DNA of 32,955 nt from positions 1-32,955 of the IMG/VR virus record IMGVR_UViG_2617271086_000008; one strand, written 5' to 3'. This DNA comes from a virus (lineage: Duplodnaviria; Heunggongvirae; Uroviricota; Caudoviricetes). A program made the translations under genes and the position numbers. Below the pieces are notes generated by a model. The model searched no databases. It saw only the letters and a list, made by a program, of their open reading frames with translations, and was not told the DNA's origin. Positions 6,793 to 29,778 of this stretch are shown here, one piece after another (the first letter of the stretch is position 1; every line of letters starts with the position of its first letter).

Positions 6793-7830
6793 ATGGCGGT
6801 AAAAGTTGTTGATCTTTTTTGTGGTGCTGGCGGGCTTACTCATGGCTTAAAGCAAGCCGGATTAGATGTAGTCGCTGGTATTGATATAGAGAGTGCATGC
6901 CGGGTTGCTTATGAAAGTAATAACAGTGCGCTTTTTATTGAAAAAGATATTTCTCTGGTGACCAAAGACGAGCTTAACGATCTTTTTGAAGGTGCGCAGG
7001 TCAGGGTGTTGGCTGGTTGTGCGCCGTGCCAACCTTTTTCAAGGTATACGCAAGGGCGCGATAAGAAAAATGATAAAAAGTGGCCTCTTCTTTATGAATT
7101 TGAACGTTTAATTCGAGGGGTTAATCCAGAGATCGTTACAATGGAAAATGTGCCTGATGTAACGAAGCATTCTGTTTATAGTGACTTCTATAATAGTTTA
7201 GAGGCATTGGGTTATCATGTCTGGGCCGGAAAGGTTGAATGTGTAGATTATGGTGTTCCGCAAAATAGAGTAAGGCATGTATTATTGGCATCTAAATTTG
7301 CGCCGCTTTCATTTGTAAAACCAAAAGTAGAAAAGGCGGTGACGGTAAAAGAATGCATTGGCGGACTTCCTCCATTAAAGGCAGGTCAAACGGATCCTGT
7401 TGATCCTTTACATAAAGCAAGTAAATTAAGTGATATAAATCTAAAACGTATTGCTTGCTCTAAACCAGGAGGGACATGGCGAGACTGGCCAGTAGAGTTG
7501 ATTGCATCATGCCACATAAAGAAAAGTGGGCAAGGTTATGCTAGTGTATACGGACGTATGGATTGGGATAAACCAAGTCCTACAATTACTACGCTATGTT
7601 ATGGTTTTGGAAATGGCAGATTTGGTCATCCAGAGCAAAATCGTGCAATTTCTCTGAGAGAGGCTGCATTGTTGCAAACGTTTCCAAAGGATTACGTTTT
7701 TACTGCACCCAATGAGAAAGTATCTATAAAGAATGTTGGTAGGATGATTGGTAATGCAGTACCGGTAAAACTAGGTGAGGTTATAGGTGAGTCAATTATA
7801 ACTCACCTAAAAGAGCACAATATAGTTTAA
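6793..7830 (+). CDS. DNA (cytosine-5)-methyltransferase
   Basis: Motif I DLFCGAGG, motif IV GCAPCQPFS (catalytic PCQ), motif VI ENV, motif VIII QNRVR, motif X GNAV; AT-rich relative to the phage backbone. Confidence 0.9.
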   Translation: MAVKVVDLFCGAGGLTHGLKQAGLDVVAGIDIESACRVAYESNNSALFIEKDISLVTKDELNDLFEGAQVRVLAGCAPCQPFSRYTQGRDKKNDKKWPLLYEFERLIRGVNPEIVTMENVPDVTKHSVYSDFYNSLEALGYHVWAGKVECVDYGVPQNRVRHVLLASKFAPLSFVKPKVEKAVTVKECIGGLPPLKAGQTDPVDPLHKASKLSDINLKRIACSKPGGTWRDWPVELIASCHIKKSGQGYASVYGRMDWDKPSPTITTLCYGFGNGRFGHPEQNRAISLREAALLQTFPKDYVFTAPNEKVSIKNVGRMIGNAVPVKLGEVIGESIITHLKEHNIV

Positions 7831-8558
7831 GCCTGTAGTCTTGATGATCGTATGTATAAGCGATCATCAAGGTATTTTTGTATGTTTTCTAGTATTTCTT
7901 CTAGGTAATGGAAAACTTCATTTTTAAGAAGTTCAAGGTTGTCAATAGACGTTTCTTGACCCTTGTTTAAAAAGGATTCTGAACCATGTGCCAATGCATT
8001 TCTTGCTTTTTTTATGTTTACTAAATTTCCACCATTATGAGTTTTTGAACGATCTGTTTGATAGGAAAAACCATAGATATTAGCAACATCCCTAATTTTC
8101 TGTGCGTCAACATTTCCCGAAAATAGGGGGTTTTTATCTGCTTGAACTTGTTTTTTGTGTTCCTCTAGCCATTTTTTTAGAACTAGTTTTGCTATATCAC
8201 CTTGTGAAAAATCCATGTCACTCACCATATGATGGTCTAATTTTTTTAAGGCAAGCTTTGTTAAACTTTCGCAAATCTTATCGACACAAAGATCATCGCA
8301 CGAATTAAGTTCATTATGTATGTCTTCAATAGCATTAGATATAGTGGCTTCAATTAAGTTATATAATATAATAAACGCATTGGCTTTAAGGATATGCGTC
8401 ATTTCGATATCGATTTCGCGGTGTTTACATTCGCCTGCTGTGCGATCTTTGTACGAGAAAGTTGGTCTCTCATCAATAATGAATTTAACAAAATTAAAAT
8501 ATTTTTCTATATCTTCTTTTCTTTCAGAAAATAAAATTTTGCTGTTCATAATGACCAC
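7827..8558 (-). CDS. HEPN-like protein (R-x4-HG motif), putative RNase/abortive-infection effector
   Basis: 243 aa; C-terminal motif KARNALAHG (R186-x4-H191-G); probable GTG start at 8558 with a GAGGAG RBS that overlaps the stop of the upstream DUF262 gene. Confidence 0.6.
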   Translation of the reverse strand: MVIMNSKILFSERKEDIEKYFNFVKFIIDERPTFSYKDRTAGECKHREIDIEMTHILKANAFIILYNLIEATISNAIEDIHNELNSCDDLCVDKICESLTKLALKKLDHHMVSDMDFSQGDIAKLVLKKWLEEHKKQVQADKNPLFSGNVDAQKIRDVANIYGFSYQTDRSKTHNGGNLVNIKKARNALAHGSESFLNKGQETSIDNLELLKNEVFHYLEEILENIQKYLDDRLYIRSSRLQA

Positions 8559-8564
8559 GGATAG

Positions 8565-9689
8565 TTACTCCTCACTATCATCTAGAACAGTATCTTCGGT
8601 CTGCACACCTAAAAGTTTGTCTCTTACATATTCAATACGTGCTTTTACTTTAGGTTTTGAGTTTGACGCATCAGATCTTGTATGTTTAATAAACTCTTCT
8701 GAGTTTAACCATTCCTCTACCGGTGTTGGTATTATGTTAGAGTTAGTTTTTAAGGCTAAAGTGGAACCGACAGCTAACGCTTCAAAGCGAATTCTTGGTA
8801 CAGTGTTTGCTGTTGCATTCTTTCTGAAACCATAGGGGAAATGTGTTTTGACAAATTCACACATATCTTGAAATTGTGCAGTTAGTTTTTCTTCTTGCTC
8901 AGGACTAAATGACTCATTTCGTTGGTCAAGATATTGGGTTAAGAAAGTATCAACACTTTTTTCAAAGTTAAGATAGTTATCACAATAGGCAAAATATCTA
9001 AGAACCAATTCTGGATATTCTCCACGACTGATTCTGGCATCGTTTAGAGGGCATATTTCCCTAAACAATGGAAACTCTGATAGTCTATTAACAACATCAA
9101 GAAAAGGCCCATCATTACTGCCCTGTCGTTGCTCCATTGTCGTGAGTTTTATTCCACCTGTATTCAATCGATCGAAAATCTCCCTTCTTGCTTCTTCATC
9201 ACATAATTCAGTGAGTTCAATCATTCGAATAGTTTTTCTATCGAATCTAAGCTTACGTGCAGGTGTGAAGTCAGAGTATTTGAATCCGTTGGCTGAAGTT
9301 AACTTTTTTAATCCAGTAAGGGTAAATTTATCATTTAGAAAATGATAAAGTGTTCTAATCCTCTGGCTACCATCAACGATTTCCAATCGCCCATCGTCAT
9401 TTCCGATATCGGCAACAAATACATATGGGATAGGAATATTTAGCAAAAGCGATTCAATGAATCTTGATTTTTGAACATTGCTCCAAACAAATTCCCTTTG
9501 ATAATCAGGTATGTATAGTTCTGCTTGGTCGGTTTCTAATCCTTTCTGAAATTTGTCAACAATGACACTTACAGGAAACTCTCTAATTTGGTGATCCGTT
9601 ATTTTTTGCATGGATTTGATCTGGTTATCCAGGTCAACTTTATCTTCTTCTGTGATCACTTGTTCAGGTTGTCTTGGGACTCTTGCCAT
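8565..9689 (-). CDS. DUF262 (ParB/GmrS-like NTPase) domain protein without HNH/DUF1524
   Basis: Motifs DYQREFVW, IVDGSQRIRT (DGQQR-like) and FDRLNTGGIKL; likely start ATG 9689 with an AAGGAG RBS (ORF extends to 9851). Confidence 0.75.
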   Translation of the reverse strand: MARVPRQPEQVITEEDKVDLDNQIKSMQKITDHQIREFPVSVIVDKFQKGLETDQAELYIPDYQREFVWSNVQKSRFIESLLLNIPIPYVFVADIGNDDGRLEIVDGSQRIRTLYHFLNDKFTLTGLKKLTSANGFKYSDFTPARKLRFDRKTIRMIELTELCDEEARREIFDRLNTGGIKLTTMEQRQGSNDGPFLDVVNRLSEFPLFREICPLNDARISRGEYPELVLRYFAYCDNYLNFEKSVDTFLTQYLDQRNESFSPEQEEKLTAQFQDMCEFVKTHFPYGFRKNATANTVPRIRFEALAVGSTLALKTNSNIIPTPVEEWLNSEEFIKHTRSDASNSKPKVKARIEYVRDKLLGVQTEDTVLDDSEE

Positions 9690-21156: not shown

Positions 21157-21760
21157 TTCGCGACTGCTGCCGACTGGCTCATCACCGCTTGAAGTTGCCG
21201 CCGCAAAAGCCTGCGCGGAAATTGAAAAAACGCCGGTCAGTATTCGTGAGCTGTGGAACCCGGATACCTGCCCGGCAAATCTGCTGCCGTGGCTGGCGTG
21301 GTCATTTTCGGTTGACCGCTGGGATGATAAGTGGCCGGAAGCGACAAAACGCGCTGTTATCCGCGATGCGTATTTCATTCACTGTCATAAAGGCACTATA
21401 GGTGCAATCCGGCGTGTGGTGGAGCCGCTCGGCTATCTGATTGAGGTGAGGGAGTGGTGGCAGCTCAACGAGGAGCCGGGGACGTTCCGTATCGTTGTTG
21501 GCGTGCTTGAGCAGGGTATTACCGAAGAAATGTATCAGGAGCTGGAGCGCCTCGTTGCTGATGCAAAACCGGCGAGCCGCCATCTTACGGGACTGGCTAT
21601 CAGTTTAAGTACAACCGGCAACATTTTTGCCGGTGCGGGATGCTATCACGGTGACGCCCTGACGGTTTATCCCTACACCCCGGAGGCCATTATTGTCGGA
21701 GGGGATTATTTCCCGGCCTCGGCCATTCATTTAATTGATAACCTGAGAGTAAACGCATGA
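21149..21760 (+). CDS. I: Baseplate/tail protein I
   Basis: P2 gpI position; exact start uncertain (ORF gives 203 aa). Confidence 0.8.
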   Translation: MSDSRLLPTGSSPLEVAAAKACAEIEKTPVSIRELWNPDTCPANLLPWLAWSFSVDRWDDKWPEATKRAVIRDAYFIHCHKGTIGAIRRVVEPLGYLIEVREWWQLNEEPGTFRIVVGVLEQGITEEMYQELERLVADAKPASRHLTGLAISLSTTGNIFAGAGCYHGDALTVYPYTPEAIIVGGDYFPASAIHLIDNLRVNA

Positions 21761-23052
21761 CAGTGAAATACTACGCCATTCTGACTAATCAGGGCGCAGC
21801 ACGGCTGGCTAACGCGACGATGCTCGGCAGTAAGCTGAATCTGACGCAAATGGCCGTTGGTGATGCGAATGGTGTCTTGCCGACACCAGACCCGGCACAG
21901 ACAAAACTGATTAACCAGAAACGCATCGCGCCGCTGAATCTTCTGAGTGTTGACCCGAACAACCAGAGCCAGATTATTGCGGAGCAAATCATCCCTGAGA
22001 ACGAGGGCGGATTCTGGATCCGTGAGATTGGGCTTTATGATGATGAAGGCGTACTCATTGCGGTGGCGAACTGCCCGGAAACGTACAAACCGCAGTTGCA
22101 GGAAGGCAGTGGTCGTACCCAGACTATCCGCATGATTCTTGTTGTCACGAATACCGAAGCTATCACGCTGAAAATCGACCCGTCGGTGGTACTGGCGACC
22201 CGTAAATACGTGGATGATGAAGTCCTGGAATTAAGGCTGTATGTGGATGACCAGATGAGAAACCACATTGCCGCACAGGATCCTCATACCCAGTATGCGC
22301 AGAAACATAATCCGACATTTACCGGAGAACCAAAAGCGCCGACGCCTGCCGCAGGAAATAACACCACGCGGATTGCGACCACTGCGTTTGTACAGGCCGC
22401 TATTACCGCTCTGATTAACGGTGCGCCTGACACGCTGGACACACTGAAAGAAATTGCCGCGGCCATTAACAATGACCCGAAATTCAGCACCACCATTAAC
22501 AATGCGCTGTCAGGTAAGCAGCCACTGGATGAGACGCTGACTCATTTGAGTGGAAAGGATGTTGCCGGTCTTCTCGCATACCTTGGTTTGGGAGAAACGA
22601 TAAATAAAGCCTCCGGAGCTATGCAGAAATCGGCTAATGGATCTGATATTTCTGATGTATCAGCCTTCCGAAATGCGCTCCAGTTAGGGACCGCTGCAAC
22701 ACGAGATGTTGGAGCAGATAATGCCTCGAAGTTACTGGATTTAGACAGCTTCAGGTCAATGATGTCAGGTAATGGCTACATCTACATTCCATGCATTGCG
22801 ACGACAGGAAACCCGGTGAAACTTATGTTGCAGTGGGGAACGGTGGCAACACAAAAGGGAGCTGATGCTGGATATGCCTTACCATTTGCTTTTCCCTATG
22901 CAGGCTTGTTTGCGACCGGAAACCGTGGAACATCTGGCTACAATGCCGCGATGAATGTGCGTATTGCCAGCAGAACGCATATCAGTATTCAGAACTGGTC
23001 GCCATCCGGAGAGGGCACCGAAGATTGTTGTTTTATCGCGCTGGGGTATTAA
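21757..23052 (+). CDS. H: Tail fibre protein H (constant N-terminus plus currently expressed variable C-terminus)
   Basis: 431 aa; the constant/variable junction at the LGLGE codons coincides with the inversion crossover site. Confidence 0.85.
   Translation: MTVKYYAILTNQGAARLANATMLGSKLNLTQMAVGDANGVLPTPDPAQTKLINQKRIAPLNLLSVDPNNQSQIIAEQIIPENEGGFWIREIGLYDDEGVLIAVANCPETYKPQLQEGSGRTQTIRMILVVTNTEAITLKIDPSVVLATRKYVDDEVLELRLYVDDQMRNHIAAQDPHTQYAQKHNPTFTGEPKAPTPAAGNNTTRIATTAFVQAAITALINGAPDTLDTLKEIAAAINNDPKFSTTINNALSGKQPLDETLTHLSGKDVAGLLAYLGLGETINKASGAMQKSANGSDISDVSAFRNALQLGTAATRDVGADNASKLLDLDSFRSMMSGNGYIYIPCIATTGNPVKLMLQWGTVATQKGADAGYALPFAFPYAGLFATGNRGTSGYNAAMNVRIASRTHISIQNWSPSGEGTEDCCFIALGY
22571..22596. 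repeat. Invertase crossover site (left), inside gene H
   Basis: TTCTCGCATACC-TT-GGTTTGGGAGAA; the 14-bp core ttggtttgggagaa (22583-22596) is the exact reverse complement of 24480-24493. Confidence 0.7.
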
Positions 23053-23054
23053 GA

Positions 23055-23471
23055 ATGAATAAATTTTATAAAGGCTCTTTCTATCCGGAAGCACTAAAAG
23101 AGGTATATATCAGCGCCGGTTCATGGCCTGAAAATGGCGTTGATGTTGATGATGAAACAATGGCAATTTACACAGGCGTAGCGCCACAAGGCAAAACGCT
23201 GGGGGCTGATAAAAATGGTAATCCTGCGTGGATTGATATCCCGCCACTCTCCGCTGAACAACAGATTATTCAGGCTGAACAGAAAAGAACGGTATTGCGT
23301 TCTATGGCTGATAAGGAAATAGTCTGGAGACAGGATGCTTTTGATGCGGAAATCGCGACGGCAGAAGAAACCGCCGCGTTATCTGAATGGAAAAAATACC
23401 GGGTCTTGCTGATGCGCGTTGATACATCAAATCCCGTCTGGCCTACGCCTCCGGGGGAGCAGGCCAATTGA
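23055..23471 (+). CDS. G: Tail fibre assembly protein (current orientation)
   Basis: ATG 23055 immediately after the H stop; 138 aa. Confidence 0.75.
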   Translation: MNKFYKGSFYPEALKEVYISAGSWPENGVDVDDETMAIYTGVAPQGKTLGADKNGNPAWIDIPPLSAEQQIIQAEQKRTVLRSMADKEIVWRQDAFDAEIATAEETAALSEWKKYRVLLMRVDTSNPVWPTPPGEQAN

Positions 23472-24036
23472 TATCCGGCGCGGTGCTGGTATCTGTTGCC
23501 GTCACCGCGTCAATGTAATCCAGCACAGCGTTAAGCCGGGTTGTTTCTGCCTGCGTCAGTTTCCGCCCGGCCTGTAATTTCAGCTGAATCAGACTAATGG
23601 AAGCCATTGCAGCATCAATCAGCGACTGGCGCTGTGCTTCTGCCGCGTCTACTGCGGCGCTATGCTGTGCCTCGGTATCCGTCACCCATTTCTCACCATC
23701 CCATTTATCGTATGGCGTTAACGGTGAAAGCGTGACATAACCGTCTTTGATGGCACCGATATAATCCACTGTAACAGCTGCACCATTTTCTGTTGAGTAA
23801 ACAGTCTCATTGCGATGGTCTTCTTCATGGATCCATCCCTTACCCGTAAATACTGCCACTTTTCCAGGAATGTTTTCGCCCGGGTCAATACCAGTGGAAC
23901 AGGCGGGCATACTTACACCAGTATTAATATATTCATCAGACCAGCCCGTATATTCATACGTTACTTCATCATAATAAAAACAACGCATATCACCCGGCAC
24001 TGTAGCCAGTCCATTTTCATCAAAAACAGGTTTCAT
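23443..24036 (-). CDS. Alternative tail fibre assembly protein (inverted cassette)
   Basis: 197-aa minus-strand ORF inside the invertible segment; 3' end overlaps G convergently. Confidence 0.7.
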   Translation of the reverse strand: MKPVFDENGLATVPGDMRCFYYDEVTYEYTGWSDEYINTGVSMPACSTGIDPGENIPGKVAVFTGKGWIHEEDHRNETVYSTENGAAVTVDYIGAIKDGYVTLSPLTPYDKWDGEKWVTDTEAQHSAAVDAAEAQRQSLIDAAMASISLIQLKLQAGRKLTQAETTRLNAVLDYIDAVTATDTSTAPDINWPAPPEA

Positions 24037-24493
24037 TATTTAGCCCTCACCAGAAAGTTAAATGCGATGTTACGTGGTCTGACGGCAATAAAATTCACAC
24101 CATCACCCACTGAATTACTGGTGTAATGGTATCGAGAGAAACCCGGCTCGTGTGCTGATATTCCATCGTGATTAGCAATCGAATGGCCGGAGCCCTCTGG
24201 ATAATTACCGCCAAATTGCGATAAAGATGTTGCTGCCTGCCAGCTTAATAATGCTCGTCCACTGTCCGCCCCTCGCCCATCATCCCAGATACGAATGAAA
24301 TCACCGCGGGCTTCAGGCAATACCAGCGAAGGAAACACTTTCGCCAGCACAGGGTAATCAGTGGCAGAGAATTTCGCGCCGTTGAACTTCAAAAACACCA
24401 TGCTGGACCAGCTGTCGATTACGGTATCTGGCATTGCGGCGGACGGCCAGAAGAACGGAACGCCAATAGCTGGAACACCTTCTCCCAAACCAA
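24036..24493 (-). other. Promoterless alternative tail-fibre C-terminal cassette (Hv')
   Basis: Minus-strand ORF whose 5' end encodes GLGE at the right crossover site; inversion would fuse it in frame to the H constant region. Confidence 0.7.
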
Positions 24494-24505
24494 CGTTTAA
24501 GAAAA
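24480..24505. repeat. Invertase crossover site (right)
   Basis: TTCTCCCAAACC-AA-CGTTTAAGAAAA; imperfect palindrome of the Hin/Gin half-site type, inverted relative to 22571-22596. Confidence 0.7.
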
Positions 24506-24560
24506 TGCAGAGATTACGGCTAACTGGCATCATCCCCGGTTTTTATTCAGGGGATCCATC

Positions 24561-25154
24561 ATGCTTATTGGCTATGTCCGCGTGTCAACAAATGACCAGA
24601 ATACGGAATTGCAGCGTAACGCGCTGGAGTGCGCAGGATGTGAGCTGATTTTTGAGGATAAAATCAGCGGCACGAAGTCCGACCGACCGGGACTGAAAAA
24701 ACTGCTCAGGACATTATCGGAGGGGGATACACTGGTGGTCTGGAAGCTGGACCGGCTGGGGCGTAGTATGCGGCATCTGGTCATTCTGGTTGAGGAACTG
24801 CGCGAACGCGGCGTTAATTTTCGCAGCCTGACAGATGCTATTGATACCAGCACGCCGATGGGGCGTTTTTTCTTTCATGTGATGGGTGCCCTGGCTGAAA
24901 TGGAGCGAGAACTCATTGTCGAGCGGACACGCGCCGGACTGGAAGCGGCCAGAGCCAAAGGTCGTATTGGTGGCAGACGACCGAAACTCACCGCGAGTGA
25001 GTGGGAGCAGGTCGGACGGTTGCTGGCTGCGGGGGAATCTCGTCAACGTGTAGCGCTGATTTTTGATATTGGCCTGTCCACGCTCTATAAAAAATTCCCC
25101 TCATCAGCGACAAAGAATAAATTGTGTCATCCCTTAGCCAACCGGGACAAATAG
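24561..25154 (+). CDS. Serine DNA invertase (Pin/Gin/Cin/Hin family)
   Basis: N-terminus MLIGYVRVSTNDQ with catalytic Ser; resolvase core (VWKLDRLGRS) and C-terminal HTH; very similar to e14 Pin as recalled. Confidence 0.9.
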   Translation: MLIGYVRVSTNDQNTELQRNALECAGCELIFEDKISGTKSDRPGLKKLLRTLSEGDTLVVWKLDRLGRSMRHLVILVEELRERGVNFRSLTDAIDTSTPMGRFFFHVMGALAEMERELIVERTRAGLEAARAKGRIGGRRPKLTASEWEQVGRLLAAGESRQRVALIFDIGLSTLYKKFPSSATKNKLCHPLANRDK

Positions 25155-25213
25155 CCTGACATCTCCGGCGCAACTGAAAATACCACTCACCCATTAACCA
25201 CGGAGTTAAACGG

Positions 25214-27419: not shown

Positions 27420-29778
27420 CAATGTAAAATTACAGGTATTGCTCAGGGCTGTTGACCAGGCATCCCGCCCGTTTAAATCCATCCGCACAGCGAGTAAGTC
27501 GCTGTCGGGGGATATCCGGGAAACACAAAAATCACTGCGCGAGCTGAACGGTCAGGCATCCCGTATTGAGGGATTTCGCAAGACCAGTGCACAGCTCGCC
27601 GTGACTGGTCATGCACTTGAAAAGGCTCGGCAGGAAGCCGAAGCCCTTGCCACGCAGTTTAAAAACACCGAACGTCCGACCCGTGCTCAGGCGAAAGTGC
27701 TGGAATCCGCAAAGCGTGCGGCGGAGGACTTACAGGCGAAATATAACCGCCTGACGGATTCCGTTAAACGCCAGCAGCGGGAACTGGCCGCTGTGGGAAT
27801 TAATACCCGCAATCTTGCACATGATGAGCAGGGGCTGAAAAACCGTATCAGTGAAACCACCGCACAGCTTAACCGTCAGCGCGACGCACTGGCGCGTGTC
27901 AGTGCACAACAGGCAAAACTTAACGCAGTAAAACAGCGTTATCAGGCCGGAAAGGAACTGGCAGGAAATATGGCCTCAGTGGGCGCTGCCGGTGTGGGGA
28001 TTGCTGCTGCGGGAACGATGGCCGGTGTTAAGCTGCTGATGCCCGGTTATGAGTTTGCGCAGAAAAACTCAGAATTGCAGGCTGTGCTCGGTGTGGCAAA
28101 AGACTCCGCCGAAATGGCCGCATTACGCAAACAGGCGCGCCAGCTCGGCGACAATACCGCCGCCTCGGCAGATGATGCAGCCGGTGCGCAGATTATTATT
28201 GCGAAAGCCGGTGGGGATGTTGATGCCATTCAGGCGGCAACGCCGGTCACGCTGAACATGGCGCTGGCGAACCGCCGCACGATGGAAGAAAACGCCGCCC
28301 TGCTGATGGGGATGAAATCCGCCTTTCAGCTTTCAAACGATAAGGTCGCTCATATCGGGGATGTTCTCTCCATGACGATGAACAAAACCGCCGCCGATTT
28401 TGACGGCATGAGCGATGCGCTGACCTATGCCGCACCTGTGGCAAAAAATGCCGGTGTCAGCATTGAAGAAACCGCCGCAATGGTCGGGGCGCTGCATGAT
28501 GCAAAAATTACAGGCTCAATGGCGGGGACGGGAAGCCGTGCCGTGTTAAGTCGCCTGCAGGCACCAACGGGAAAAGCATGGGATGCACTCAAAGAGCTTG
28601 GCGTGAAAACCTCAGACAGCAAGGGAAACACCCGGCCAATATTTACCATTCTGAAAGAAATGCAGGCCAGTTTTGAGAAAAACCGGCTCGGTACTGCCCA
28701 GCAGGCTGAATACATGAAAACTATTTTCGGGGAGGAGGCCAGCTCAGCCGCCGCCGTGCTGATGACTGCCGCCTCAACCGGAAAGCTGGACAAACTGACC
28801 GCTGCGTTTAAAGCCTCAGACGGGAAGACTGCCGAGCTGGTAAATATCATGCAGGACAACCTCGGCGGTGACTTTAAGGAGTTTCAGTCCGCTTATGAGG
28901 CGGTAGGGACAGACCTGTTTGACCAGCAGGAAGGCGCACTGCGTAAGCTCACACAGACGGCCACAAAGTATGTGTTAAAACTCGACGGCTGGATACAGAA
29001 AAACAAATCACTGGCGTCAACCATTGGCATCATTGCCGGTGGCGCGCTGGCGCTTATTGGCATCATCGGTGCCATTGGTCTTGTAGCCTGGCCGGTTATC
29101 ACTGGCATCAATGCCATCATCGCGGCAGCAGGCGCAATGGGGGCAATCTTCACGACGGTTGGCAGTGCTGTTATGACGGCCATCGGGGCGATTAGCTGGC
29201 CGGTTGTGGCCGTGGTGGCCGCCATTGTCGCCGGGGCGTTGCTTATCCGTAAATACTGGGAGCCTGTCAGCGCATTCTTTGGCGGTGTGGTGGAAGGGCT
29301 GAAAGCGGCATTTGCGCCGGTGGGGGAACTGTTCACGCCACTTAAACCGGTGTTTGACTGGCTGGGTGAAAAGTTACAGGCCGCGTGGCAGTGGTTTAAA
29401 AACCTGATTGCCCCGGTTAAAGCCACACAGGACACCCTGAACCGTTGCCGTGACACGGGCGTCATGTTCGGGCAGGCACTGGCTGACGCGTTGATGCTGC
29501 CGCTTAATGCGTTCAACAAACTGCGCAGTGGTATTGACTGGGTACTGGAAAAACTCGGTGTTATCAACAAAGAGTCAGACACACTTGACCAGACCGCCGC
29601 AAGGACTAATGCCGCCACGTATGGCACCGGTGGTTATATTCCGGCGACCAGCTCTTATGCAGGCTATCAGGCTTATCAGCCGGTCACGGCACCGGCTGGC
29701 CGCTCTTATGTAGACCAGAGTAAAAACGAATATCACATCAGCCTGACGGGGTGGTACTGCGCCGGGGACACAGCTTGA
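27412..29778 (+). CDS. T: Tail tape measure protein
   Basis: 788 aa, Ala/Gly-rich with hydrophobic segments; P2 gpT position. Confidence 0.9.
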   Translation: MSNNVKLQVLLRAVDQASRPFKSIRTASKSLSGDIRETQKSLRELNGQASRIEGFRKTSAQLAVTGHALEKARQEAEALATQFKNTERPTRAQAKVLESAKRAAEDLQAKYNRLTDSVKRQQRELAAVGINTRNLAHDEQGLKNRISETTAQLNRQRDALARVSAQQAKLNAVKQRYQAGKELAGNMASVGAAGVGIAAAGTMAGVKLLMPGYEFAQKNSELQAVLGVAKDSAEMAALRKQARQLGDNTAASADDAAGAQIIIAKAGGDVDAIQAATPVTLNMALANRRTMEENAALLMGMKSAFQLSNDKVAHIGDVLSMTMNKTAADFDGMSDALTYAAPVAKNAGVSIEETAAMVGALHDAKITGSMAGTGSRAVLSRLQAPTGKAWDALKELGVKTSDSKGNTRPIFTILKEMQASFEKNRLGTAQQAEYMKTIFGEEASSAAAVLMTAASTGKLDKLTAAFKASDGKTAELVNIMQDNLGGDFKEFQSAYEAVGTDLFDQQEGALRKLTQTATKYVLKLDGWIQKNKSLASTIGIIAGGALALIGIIGAIGLVAWPVITGINAIIAAAGAMGAIFTTVGSAVMTAIGAISWPVVAVVAAIVAGALLIRKYWEPVSAFFGGVVEGLKAAFAPVGELFTPLKPVFDWLGEKLQAAWQWFKNLIAPVKATQDTLNRCRDTGVMFGQALADALMLPLNAFNKLRSGIDWVLEKLGVINKESDTLDQTAARTNAATYGTGGYIPATSSYAGYQAYQPVTAPAGRSYVDQSKNEYHISLTGWYCAGDTA

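Follow-up and report, generated by a model that had tools for sequence, protein, structure and literature searches.

A DNA-inversion switch of the Gin/Pin type that very probably alternates two tail-fibre tips in a P2-like prophage of Escherichia coli

Next to the tail-fibre gene H of the viral genome considered here lie two oppositely oriented sets of tail-fibre sequences and a serine invertase gene, which raises the question of whether this locus works as a switch between alternative fibre tips and, if so, whether it has ever been thrown. In all likelihood the element is an ordinary DNA-inversion switch of the Gin/Pin type with two tail-fibre tips, carried by an E. coli P2-like (Peduovirus) prophage, and we are just as confident that the switch has two states, is site-specific and acts on the tail fibre. 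Inversion of this very element has occurred in nature, as public genomes show. Invertible tail-fibre arrangements are already known in P2-like phages, where they are common and well documented.

The surroundings of the locus are those of a P2-like phage, as an earlier reading of the sequence alone had proposed. The gene order of P2 is present (portal and terminase opposed to the capsid genes, lysis genes, V-W-J-I-H, FI-FII-E-T-U-D, ogr, and int/C/cox, as given by the PGAP annotation of a 99.95%-identical prophage), and the DNA is 93–99% identical to P2 in J/I and in pF/FI. In P2 itself, H and G are followed by fun(Z), encoded on the other strand, and then by the pF promoter and FI; it has no invertase, in agreement with the earlier statement that P2 lacks the arrangement and carries Z/fun in its place; 99% identity to P2 resumes at position 25134, within the annotated activator-binding site of P2. 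In the window, by which we mean the whole stretch of 32,955 nt that was analysed, the locus comprises the following features:

21757–22596, + strand: Hc, the constant part of the tail-fibre gene H, 280 aa, ending in ...LAYLGLGE (Pfam Phage_tail_fib N-terminal domain, E=1.5e-62)
22571–22596, + strand: left crossover site, TTCTCGCATACC TT GGTTTGGGAGAA, central dinucleotide at 22583–22584 (repeat search and consensus scan)
22597–23052, + strand: variable tip 1 (Sv, 151 aa), now joined to Hc in a 431-aa H protein (Pfam Gp53-like_C, E=1.1e-7; PHROG tail-fibre families)
23055–23471, + strand: assembly chaperone of tip 1 (U/G-like, 138 aa; Pfam Caudo_TAP, E=1.1e-31; phrog_188)
23443–24036, − strand: assembly chaperone of tip 2 (U′, 197 aa; Pfam Caudo_TAP, E=2.3e-28)
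24036–24479, − strand: variable tip 2 (Sv′, 147 aa), of tail-collar type and silent in this orientation (tail-collar fibre families phrog_3100, E=2e-48, and phrog_523, E=3e-44)
24480–24505, + strand: right crossover site, TTCTCCCAAACC AA CGTTTAAGAAAA, central dinucleotide at 24492–24493 (repeat search and consensus scan)
24561–25154, + strand: serine DNA invertase of the Gin/Cin/Pin/Hin (Din) family, 197 aa (Resolvase PF00239, E=1.9e-52; HTH_7 PF02796, E=5.4e-13)
24583–24645, + strand: putative Fis-dependent recombinational enhancer within the invertase gene, with Fis-like 15-mers TGTCAACAAATGACC (24583–24597) and GCGCAGGATGTGAGC (24631–24645)
25134–25213, + strand: P2-type pF late-promoter region upstream of the tail-sheath gene FI, overlapping the last 21 nt of the invertase gene

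The boundaries of the segment are set by the two crossover sites. A repeat search returned a 26-nt inverted repeat whose arms, 1883 nt apart, are 81% complementary, and both copies fall where the sequence-only reading had placed them: one at the LGLGE codons of H, with its last base (22596) closing the GAA (Glu) codon, and an inverted one 1.9 kb downstream. They are inverted sites of the gix/pix type, each with a 2-bp core flanked by a pair of imperfect 12-bp half-sites. Over the inner 14 nt, TTGGTTTGGGAGAA, the two copies agree completely, and their outer half-sites differ, with matches at only 7 of 12 positions; the core, AA/TT in each when read in the same sense, is common to both sites and non-palindromic. 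A scan of the whole window with the half-site consensus of the Din family (TTNTCNNAAACC, score out of 18) found exactly two sites, each at 17/18, and these were also the only ones to score at least 13/18; in 200 shuffles, sites scoring at least 15 arose at 0.01 per window. Exactly the two annotated or expected sites were likewise recovered in P1, D108, Fels-2, pro483 and e14, among them the annotated cix sites of P1 and the D108 repeats. The same scan found no third crossover site anywhere in the window, in contrast to one locus of enteropathogenic E. coli (EPEC); the element is thus not a shufflon, and a multiple-inversion system like p15B Min or that three-site P2-like 'shufflon' was rejected on the count of sites.

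Between the sites lie, as had been claimed, two oppositely oriented sets of tip and assembly gene, and both tips and both chaperones match tail-fibre families (Pfam, PHROG). The alternative C-termini, each with its cognate assembly gene, are in frame with one constant N-terminal part: when the segment is flipped in silico, tip 2 joins Hc in frame and H passes from 431 aa (WP_078168058.1) to 427 aa, an intact ORF that is also present in E. coli 1002W03. No exact match to this flipped H exists in the protein collection, since both genomes coding for it list it as pseudogene fragments. Hc is 99% identical to residues 1–280 of the pro483 H protein and 66% identical to H of Fels-2. The two tips fall in different fold families, Gp53-like_C and the tail-collar type (Pfam, PHROGs). 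For tip 2, a Pfam search gave no match at E<=0.01 and a PDB sequence search gave only weak ones, to a short tail fibre (E=0.003) and T4 gp37 (E=0.07), and none of the fibre proteins matched NCBIfam; the tip is 38% identical to the StfE-side tip of e14. The C-terminal part of the 138-aa chaperone is 41–43% identical to P2 G, Mu/D108 U and P1 U, and U′ is 62% identical to TfaE of e14. The 3′ end of the U′ gene overlaps the 138-aa chaperone gene by 29 nt, and a simple scan for a terminator between these convergent genes gave nothing convincing.

The invertase, correctly predicted to follow the right site, is encoded by an intact ORF and belongs to the Gin/Pin family. It matches the Gin structures 3UJ3 and 4M6F (E=6e-94) far better than gamma-delta resolvase (E=3e-33), and shares 78% of its residues with Gin (D108) and with Cin and 85% with the invertase of Fels-2; at the DNA level, the first 431 nt of the gene are about 83% identical to pinE. 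A mutated catalytic serine would have spoken against an active switch, but Ser9 is kept; it aligns with Gin residue 9, an Ala in structure 3UJ3 and a Ser in 4M6F. The protein also has His106 and the wild-type Met114, a position at which the Gin crystallised for 3UJ3 carries Val. No family-level call came from NCBIfam, where all invertase matches lay below the curated cut-offs, and a PADLOC scan gave no match that would assign the invertase a defence role. A simple consensus scan for a sigma-70 promoter of the gene gave nothing convincing, with promoter-like matches below the shuffle expectation. The candidate enhancer lies at the 5′ end of the gene, where two Fis-like motifs 48 bp apart occupy gene positions 23 and 71, as they do in cin, gin, Fels-2 and pinE. 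Such enhancers are described as 65 bp long with a Fis site at each end (PMC3798978), a description that the layout in the window fits. Aligned to the annotated P1 enhancer (cin nt 19–90), the stretch with both motifs is identical at 57 of 72 positions; it also encodes the conserved catalytic N-terminus of the enzyme, so that conservation by itself does not establish an enhancer.

How the switch would operate can be pictured from the literature on Mu, P1, Hin and e14, from which Fis dependence, strand exchange and late-operon expression are carried over here. Dimers of the invertase would bind the two 26-bp sites and, on supercoiled DNA, assemble into an invertasome with the Fis-bound enhancer near the 5′ start of the invertase gene. 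Both sites would then be cut by Ser9 at the central AA/TT with a 2-bp stagger, after which one pair of subunits would rotate by 180 degrees and the ends would be religated, flipping the 1.9-kb segment. Since the late V-W-J-I-H operon is expected to read only the cassette downstream of the constant part of H, virions would come in two states, one with Hc and the gp53-like tip, made with the 138-aa chaperone, and another with Hc and the tail-collar-type tip, made with the 197-aa chaperone. A population of lysogens could thus release phage of two receptor specificities, and a change of host range upon inversion is what Mu and P1 would lead us to expect.

Among known systems, the closest in layout are Fels-2 of Salmonella (STM2702-2706) and pro483, which have the identical order I, H (constant part), site, tip, tfa, tfa′, tip′, site, invertase and FI. 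The cassettes are nevertheless different, since the tips of the window are at most ~38% identical to those of pro483 and its 138-aa chaperone (U) is 32–33% identical to the counterparts in pro483 and Fels-2. In the P2-like prophages of EPEC strain E2348/69, inversion has been shown by sequencing and PCR (PMC4272514). The e14 element of E. coli K-12, with its P segment and PinE, shares the same TTGGTTTGGGAGAA repeat, and its left and right sites match those of the window at 23 and 25 of 26 positions, respectively; it also has the same convergent tfa genes overlapping by 29 nt, and its sites, with the identical repeat, invert experimentally (PMC12529663). However, e14 is lambdoid and defective, and its tail-fibre gene is truncated, whereas the window holds a seemingly complete P2-like prophage with a P2-type H constant region. 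With the Mu G and P1 C segments the window has in common 26-bp sites, 12-bp half-sites, a 2-bp core, an enhancer inside the invertase gene, putative in the window, and alternative Sv/U and Sv′/U′ cassettes, although the Mu and P1 tips are unrelated to those found here and the segment is shorter (1.9 kb, versus 3.0 kb in Mu and 4.2 kb in P1). The core is AA/TT here and in P1, and GA/TC in Mu/D108. Mu and the window both have the invertase gene just after the right site, directed away from the segment; P1 has cin at the opposite end, directed towards cixL. Hin/hix, responsible for flagellar phase variation in Salmonella, shares the recombinase subfamily, the 26-bp sites and presumably the Fis/enhancer invertasome mechanism (PMC3798978); Hin, however, flips a promoter, whereas inversion in the window swaps the coding 3′ ends of a structural gene.

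Had only one orientation ever been seen, the proposed switch would have been in doubt, yet public assemblies hold both. Once flipped in silico, the window shows 99.95% identity along its full 32,955 nt with the cpxP/fieF prophage found in E. coli 1002W03: the two differ by 15 substitutions and one indel in 33 kb, none of them inside the segment. The prophage of E. coli strain 32-4 is flipped as well, and that of WCHEC005784 has the orientation of the window. The segment thus occurs in both orientations, which means that inversion has happened in nature, and its breakpoints map inside the 14 nt common to both sites. Among 5,426 complete E. coli genomes, only two cover at least 80% of the region in the orientation of the window and two more carry it flipped, so that this cassette combination is confined to four genomes.

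Which enzyme turned the segment is a separate matter. Inversion could be real and yet be catalysed mainly in trans by other resident Din invertases (PinE, PinQ or enzymes from further P2-like or Mu-like prophages), which would make the adjacent gene dispensable. The near identity of the sites to the pix sites of e14 suits this idea, as do the inversion of the e14 segment in trans by PinQ of the Qin prophage (PMC12529663) and the median of two copies in the E. coli genomes that bear such an invertase; since other Din enzymes could act in this way, the public genomes do not prove that the adjacent invertase did. We regard this explanation as very unlikely, given that sites, invertase and putative internal enhancer are conserved in cis in Fels-2, pro483, e14 and Mu/D108, which argues that the linked gene is selected, and it concerns the acting enzyme, not the identity of the element.

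Equally small is the chance that the switch is a fossil, inverted in the past and now frozen, either because the invertase is unexpressed or because the diverged outer half-sites bind it poorly, so that the two orientations in the databases would be old, fixed events. The limited agreement of the outer half-sites, the promoter scan and the few genomes with this cassette combination point that way. Nevertheless, diverged outer half-sites are normal in the family, including the functional sites of e14, Mu and P1, the invertase ORF is intact with all its catalytic residues, and the flipped copy in 1002W03 has so few differences, with none in the segment, that the inversion must be recent. A third explanation, that the orientations differ through an assembly artefact or RecA-mediated recombination between short inverted repeats, is close to negligible and was rejected: short-read assemblers can mis-orient segments flanked by inverted repeats, but exact identity spans just 14 nt, too short to confuse assemblers or to be an efficient RecA substrate, two independent complete genomes are flipped and one is in the state of the window, and the breakpoints lie exactly within canonical crossover sites.

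A functional two-tip switch remains by far the preferred reading, and a further question is whether the segment could also serve the lysogen. An ATG at 24533/24530, outside the segment in the interval from the right site to the invertase gene, starts an ORF that crosses the right site and continues into whichever cassette is 'silent', giving a leader (MMPVSRNLCIFLNVGLGE) followed by a tip, of 165 aa now and 169 aa after inversion. Its start is conserved in pro483, Fels-2 and e14, where the same leader ORF, also starting outside the right site, is stfE. The e14 product after inversion, StfE2, is claimed in a 2025 paper to block adsorption of phage T2 (PMC12529663). By analogy, the predicted leader-tip ORF might yield a free, receptor-masking tip protein in the lysogen, a host-side output that we consider unlikely; the putative Shine-Dalgarno sequence is poorly spaced, and conservation of the leader may simply reflect the site and the control region of the invertase. 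If true, however, this P2-like switch would toggle a receptor-masking protein of the lysogen as well as the tip of the virion.

A separate observation concerns the tape-measure gene, in which the window has an extra G at 29748 that would truncate the protein from 815 to 788 aa. Should this be a true difference instead of a sequencing error, the copy might be unable to produce infectious particles, in which case the switch would be without phage-level consequence in this strain.

Invertase homologues with at least 80% gene coverage occur in 1,794 of the 5,426 complete E. coli genomes, about a third. Such a locus would be a textbook case of bet-hedging on phage host range; it is widespread, and it matters little beyond correct annotation. 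Inversion loci of this kind are poorly served by automatic annotation, which in one genome makes the silent tip a partial 'integrase' and in two others breaks the intact flipped H into two 'pseudogenes'. The cassettes are common to P1-like and lambdoid phages and their boundaries are the crossover sites, which illustrates how these sites act as joints for swapping receptor-binding modules, useful to predict or engineer host range.

Natural copies of the tail-fibre region of this P2-like E. coli prophage exist in both orientations, and the divergence between them is tiny. The sequence-only reading had placed an invertible segment at the end of the tail-fibre gene H; its observation is confirmed, and the interpretation as an invertible tail-fibre segment is supported. 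The segment holds four coding units, which form, as that reading had described, two opposed sets of a variable H end (tip) and a chaperone between the crossover sites, one on the + strand (22597-23471) and the other on the - strand (23443-24479). The region is organised as follows:

21757-22596: Hc, the constant part of H (first 280 aa), with a P2-type Phage_tail_fib N-terminal domain (E=1.5e-62)
22571-22596: left crossover site, TTCTCGCATACCTTGGTTTGGGAGAA
22597-23052, + strand: tip 1 (Sv), 151 aa, Gp53-like_C
23055-23471, + strand: tip 1 chaperone, 138 aa, Caudo_TAP
23443-24036, - strand: tip 2 chaperone, 197 aa, Caudo_TAP, 62% identity to e14 TfaE
24036-24479, - strand: tip 2 (Sv'), 147 aa, matching PHROG tail-collar fibre families (E about 1e-48 to 1e-44)
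24480-24505: right crossover site, TTCTCCCAAACCAACGTTTAAGAAAA
24561-25154: invertase, 197 aa, Resolvase and HTH_7 domains

The two sites emerged from a repeat search of the window as a 26-nt inverted repeat with 81% complementarity and 1883 nt between its arms, which bears out the claimed inverted copy 1.9 kb downstream. When read in the same sense, the inner half and the core are identical at both sites (TTGGTTTGGGAGAA), whereas the outer halves differ. With H starting at 21757, its codons fall at positions 22567+3n, and GGT CTT CTC GCA TAC CTT GGT TTG GGA GAA is read as G-L-L-A-Y-L-G-L-G-E at the end of Hc; its Glu codon is completed at 22596, the final base of the left site, so that Hc does end with LGLGE exactly on the site. 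We also scored all 26-mers of the window against a Din-family half-site consensus (TTNTCNNAAACC) at both halves; with this consensus, which derives in part from the window itself, only the left and right sites reached at least 13/18, scoring 17 each, and shuffled sequences gave a mean of 0.01 sites of at least 15 (n=200 shuffles). Applied to five comparator loci, the same scan returned two sites per locus and no more, among them cixL and cixR, which are annotated in P1, and the inverted repeats that the D108 record annotates.

Flipping positions 22583-24493 in silico places Hc in frame with tip 2, in an H protein of 427 aa with the C-terminus ...NFLVRAK. When an 851-nt query across this artificial junction was searched against complete genomes, E. 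coli 1002W03 matched it at 100% and strain 32-4 at 99.8%; at a query coverage of at least 80%, the flipped junction occurs in 30 complete genomes and the native one in 75. Once flipped, the window aligns to the 1002W03 prophage at 99.95% identity along its full length of 32,955 nt, and the 15 substitutions and single indel all lie outside the segment, whereas the unflipped window aligns in three pieces with breakpoints within the 14 nt shared by the sites. In 1002W03, the ORF of the flipped H is uninterrupted. Strain 32-4 is likewise flipped and WCHEC005784, with essentially the same prophage, is oriented as the window; the same element therefore occurs naturally in both states. A single orientation throughout deep long-read data had been named beforehand as evidence against inversion; public genomes, as the comparative-genomics counterpart of that test, yielded both. 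The switch is almost certainly active, or was until very recently.

The serine invertase announced beyond the right site shares 78% identity with Gin and Cin and 85% with the Fels-2 invertase, and aligns end to end with the sequences of Gin crystal structures (E=6e-94). In that alignment Ser occupies the nucleophile position 9, where a mutation would have spoken against a working switch, and Met114 is the wild-type residue, which is Val in crystallised Gin. The P1 record annotates an enhancer of C-segment inversion at nt 19-90 of cin, to which window positions 24579-24650 are identical at 57/72 nt. Within this stretch, two 15-mers matching a loose Fis motif ([GT]NNYRNNWNNYRNN[CG]) start at positions 23 and 71 of the invertase gene, and such motifs are found at these positions in cin, gin (D108), the Fels-2 invertase gene and pinE. 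This layout fits the published description of an enhancer roughly 65 bp long with a Fis site at either end, the centres of which are 47 bp apart in hin (PMC3798978). An enhancer of this kind, putatively Fis-dependent, likely lies inside the invertase gene; conservation alone does not prove the function, because the aligned stretch also codes for the conserved catalytic N-terminus.

The inversion is best explained by the standard invertasome mechanism. Invertase dimers would bind both sites and form a synapse at the enhancer occupied by Fis; Ser9 would then cut the AA/TT cores with a 2-bp stagger, and one pair of subunits would rotate before religation of the ends. With a core that is not palindromic, as at these sites, Hin and Gin are known to act productively on the inverted configuration alone, so that deletion is avoided; by analogy, the same would hold for this element. 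The P2 late operon would transcribe Hc and then whichever tip and chaperone sit downstream, so that phages released from lysogens would carry one of two receptor-binding tips. As in Mu and P1, the exchange of tips may change the host range.

The silent cassette, the tip and chaperone set not joined to Hc, is not without a start. An ATG at 24533/24530, outside the segment and adjoining the invertase gene, opens a - strand ORF (24036-24533) consisting of a leader (MMPVSRNLCIFLNVGLGE) followed by the tip, of 165 aa at present and 169 aa once inverted. The leader start is kept in pro483, Fels-2 and e14, where it is that of stfE. A 2025 paper claims that the post-inversion e14 equivalent, StfE2, blocks T2 adsorption (PMC12529663); that the leader ORF into the silent cassette would similarly be expressed and serve the host seems to us improbable. 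Automatic pipelines mis-annotate these loci: the silent tail-collar tip of WCHEC005784 (L001:5280-5741) appears as a partial 'integrase' pseudogene, and the intact 427-aa flipped H of 1002W03 (L003:3578-4861) and 32-4 (L004:3578-4861) as two 'partial' pseudogenes.

This is a well-known kind of system at a well-known place. Fels-2 and pro483, both with an annotated DNA invertase, share its architecture, and Hc is 99% identical to H of pro483 and 66% to that of Fels-2. The e14 P segment is built alike, its sites agree with ours at 23/26 and 25/26 positions, and the 14-mer shared by the window sites lies within the published e14 repeat TTGGTTTGGGAGAAGG (PMC12529663). In P2-like prophages of EPEC E2348/69, among them a simple two-state locus and a three-site shufflon, both sequencing and PCR have demonstrated inversion (PMC4272514). 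Among 5,426 complete E. coli genomes, 1,794 have an invertase homologue that spans at least 80% of the gene.

The sole particularity of the element is its combination of cassettes; in the window orientation, two genomes contain at least 80% of the region, and two more have it flipped. Tip 1 and its chaperone are 99% identical in phage phi458 and also occur in a P1-like phage (Punavirus), adjoining Hin-like genes, while tip 2 and its chaperone are found in lambdoid phages as the side tail fibre (mEp213 and mEp043 among the aligned phages). Cassette alignments to unrelated phages begin or end at the crossover sites (22579-22583 and 24498-24504) or at 23439-23444, where the two convergent chaperone genes overlap by 29 nt. 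Judging from these ends, the sites and the overlap appear to be joints for cassette exchange across phage families.

P2 itself, as had been stated, lacks this arrangement and has Z/fun in its place: after H and G come a terminator, the oppositely oriented fun(Z), the activator site of pF, and FI. Nucleotide homology to P2 ends within gene I (window 21595) and resumes at 25134, within the annotated pF activator-binding site; the entire tail-fibre module and the Z/fun slot have therefore been replaced. A survey of P2-like hotspots reports that a DNA invertase is often found at the Z/fun locus, with inverted neighbour genes (bioRxiv 10.1101/2024.10.15.618418). The last 21 nt of the invertase gene (25134-25154, with the stop codon at 25152-25154) belong to DNA that matches the P2 pF late-promoter region at 99% identity; promoter DNA thus encodes part of the C-terminal extension of the protein, which has 197 aa where Gin has 193.

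The window begins with the integrase gene and closes at the end of fieF; it represents a P2-like prophage, complete in appearance, that is inserted between cpxP and fieF, its position in 1002W03 too. A G-run at 29748-29751 reads GGGG where the 1002W03 prophage, 99.95% identical, has GGG, and puts the tape-measure gene T out of frame (788 aa in place of 815); the extra G reflects either a sequencing error in the homopolymer or a genuine defect, and the latter could severely impair the assembly of tails by this copy. The old/tin hotspot (6793-9689), between the replication and portal genes, holds three genes, which are probably anti-phage cargo: a C5 cytosine methyltransferase (PADLOC type II MTase/DrmMII-like), a HEPN-like nuclease without a PADLOC match, and a DUF262 protein matching NsnA and PD-T4-2_A.
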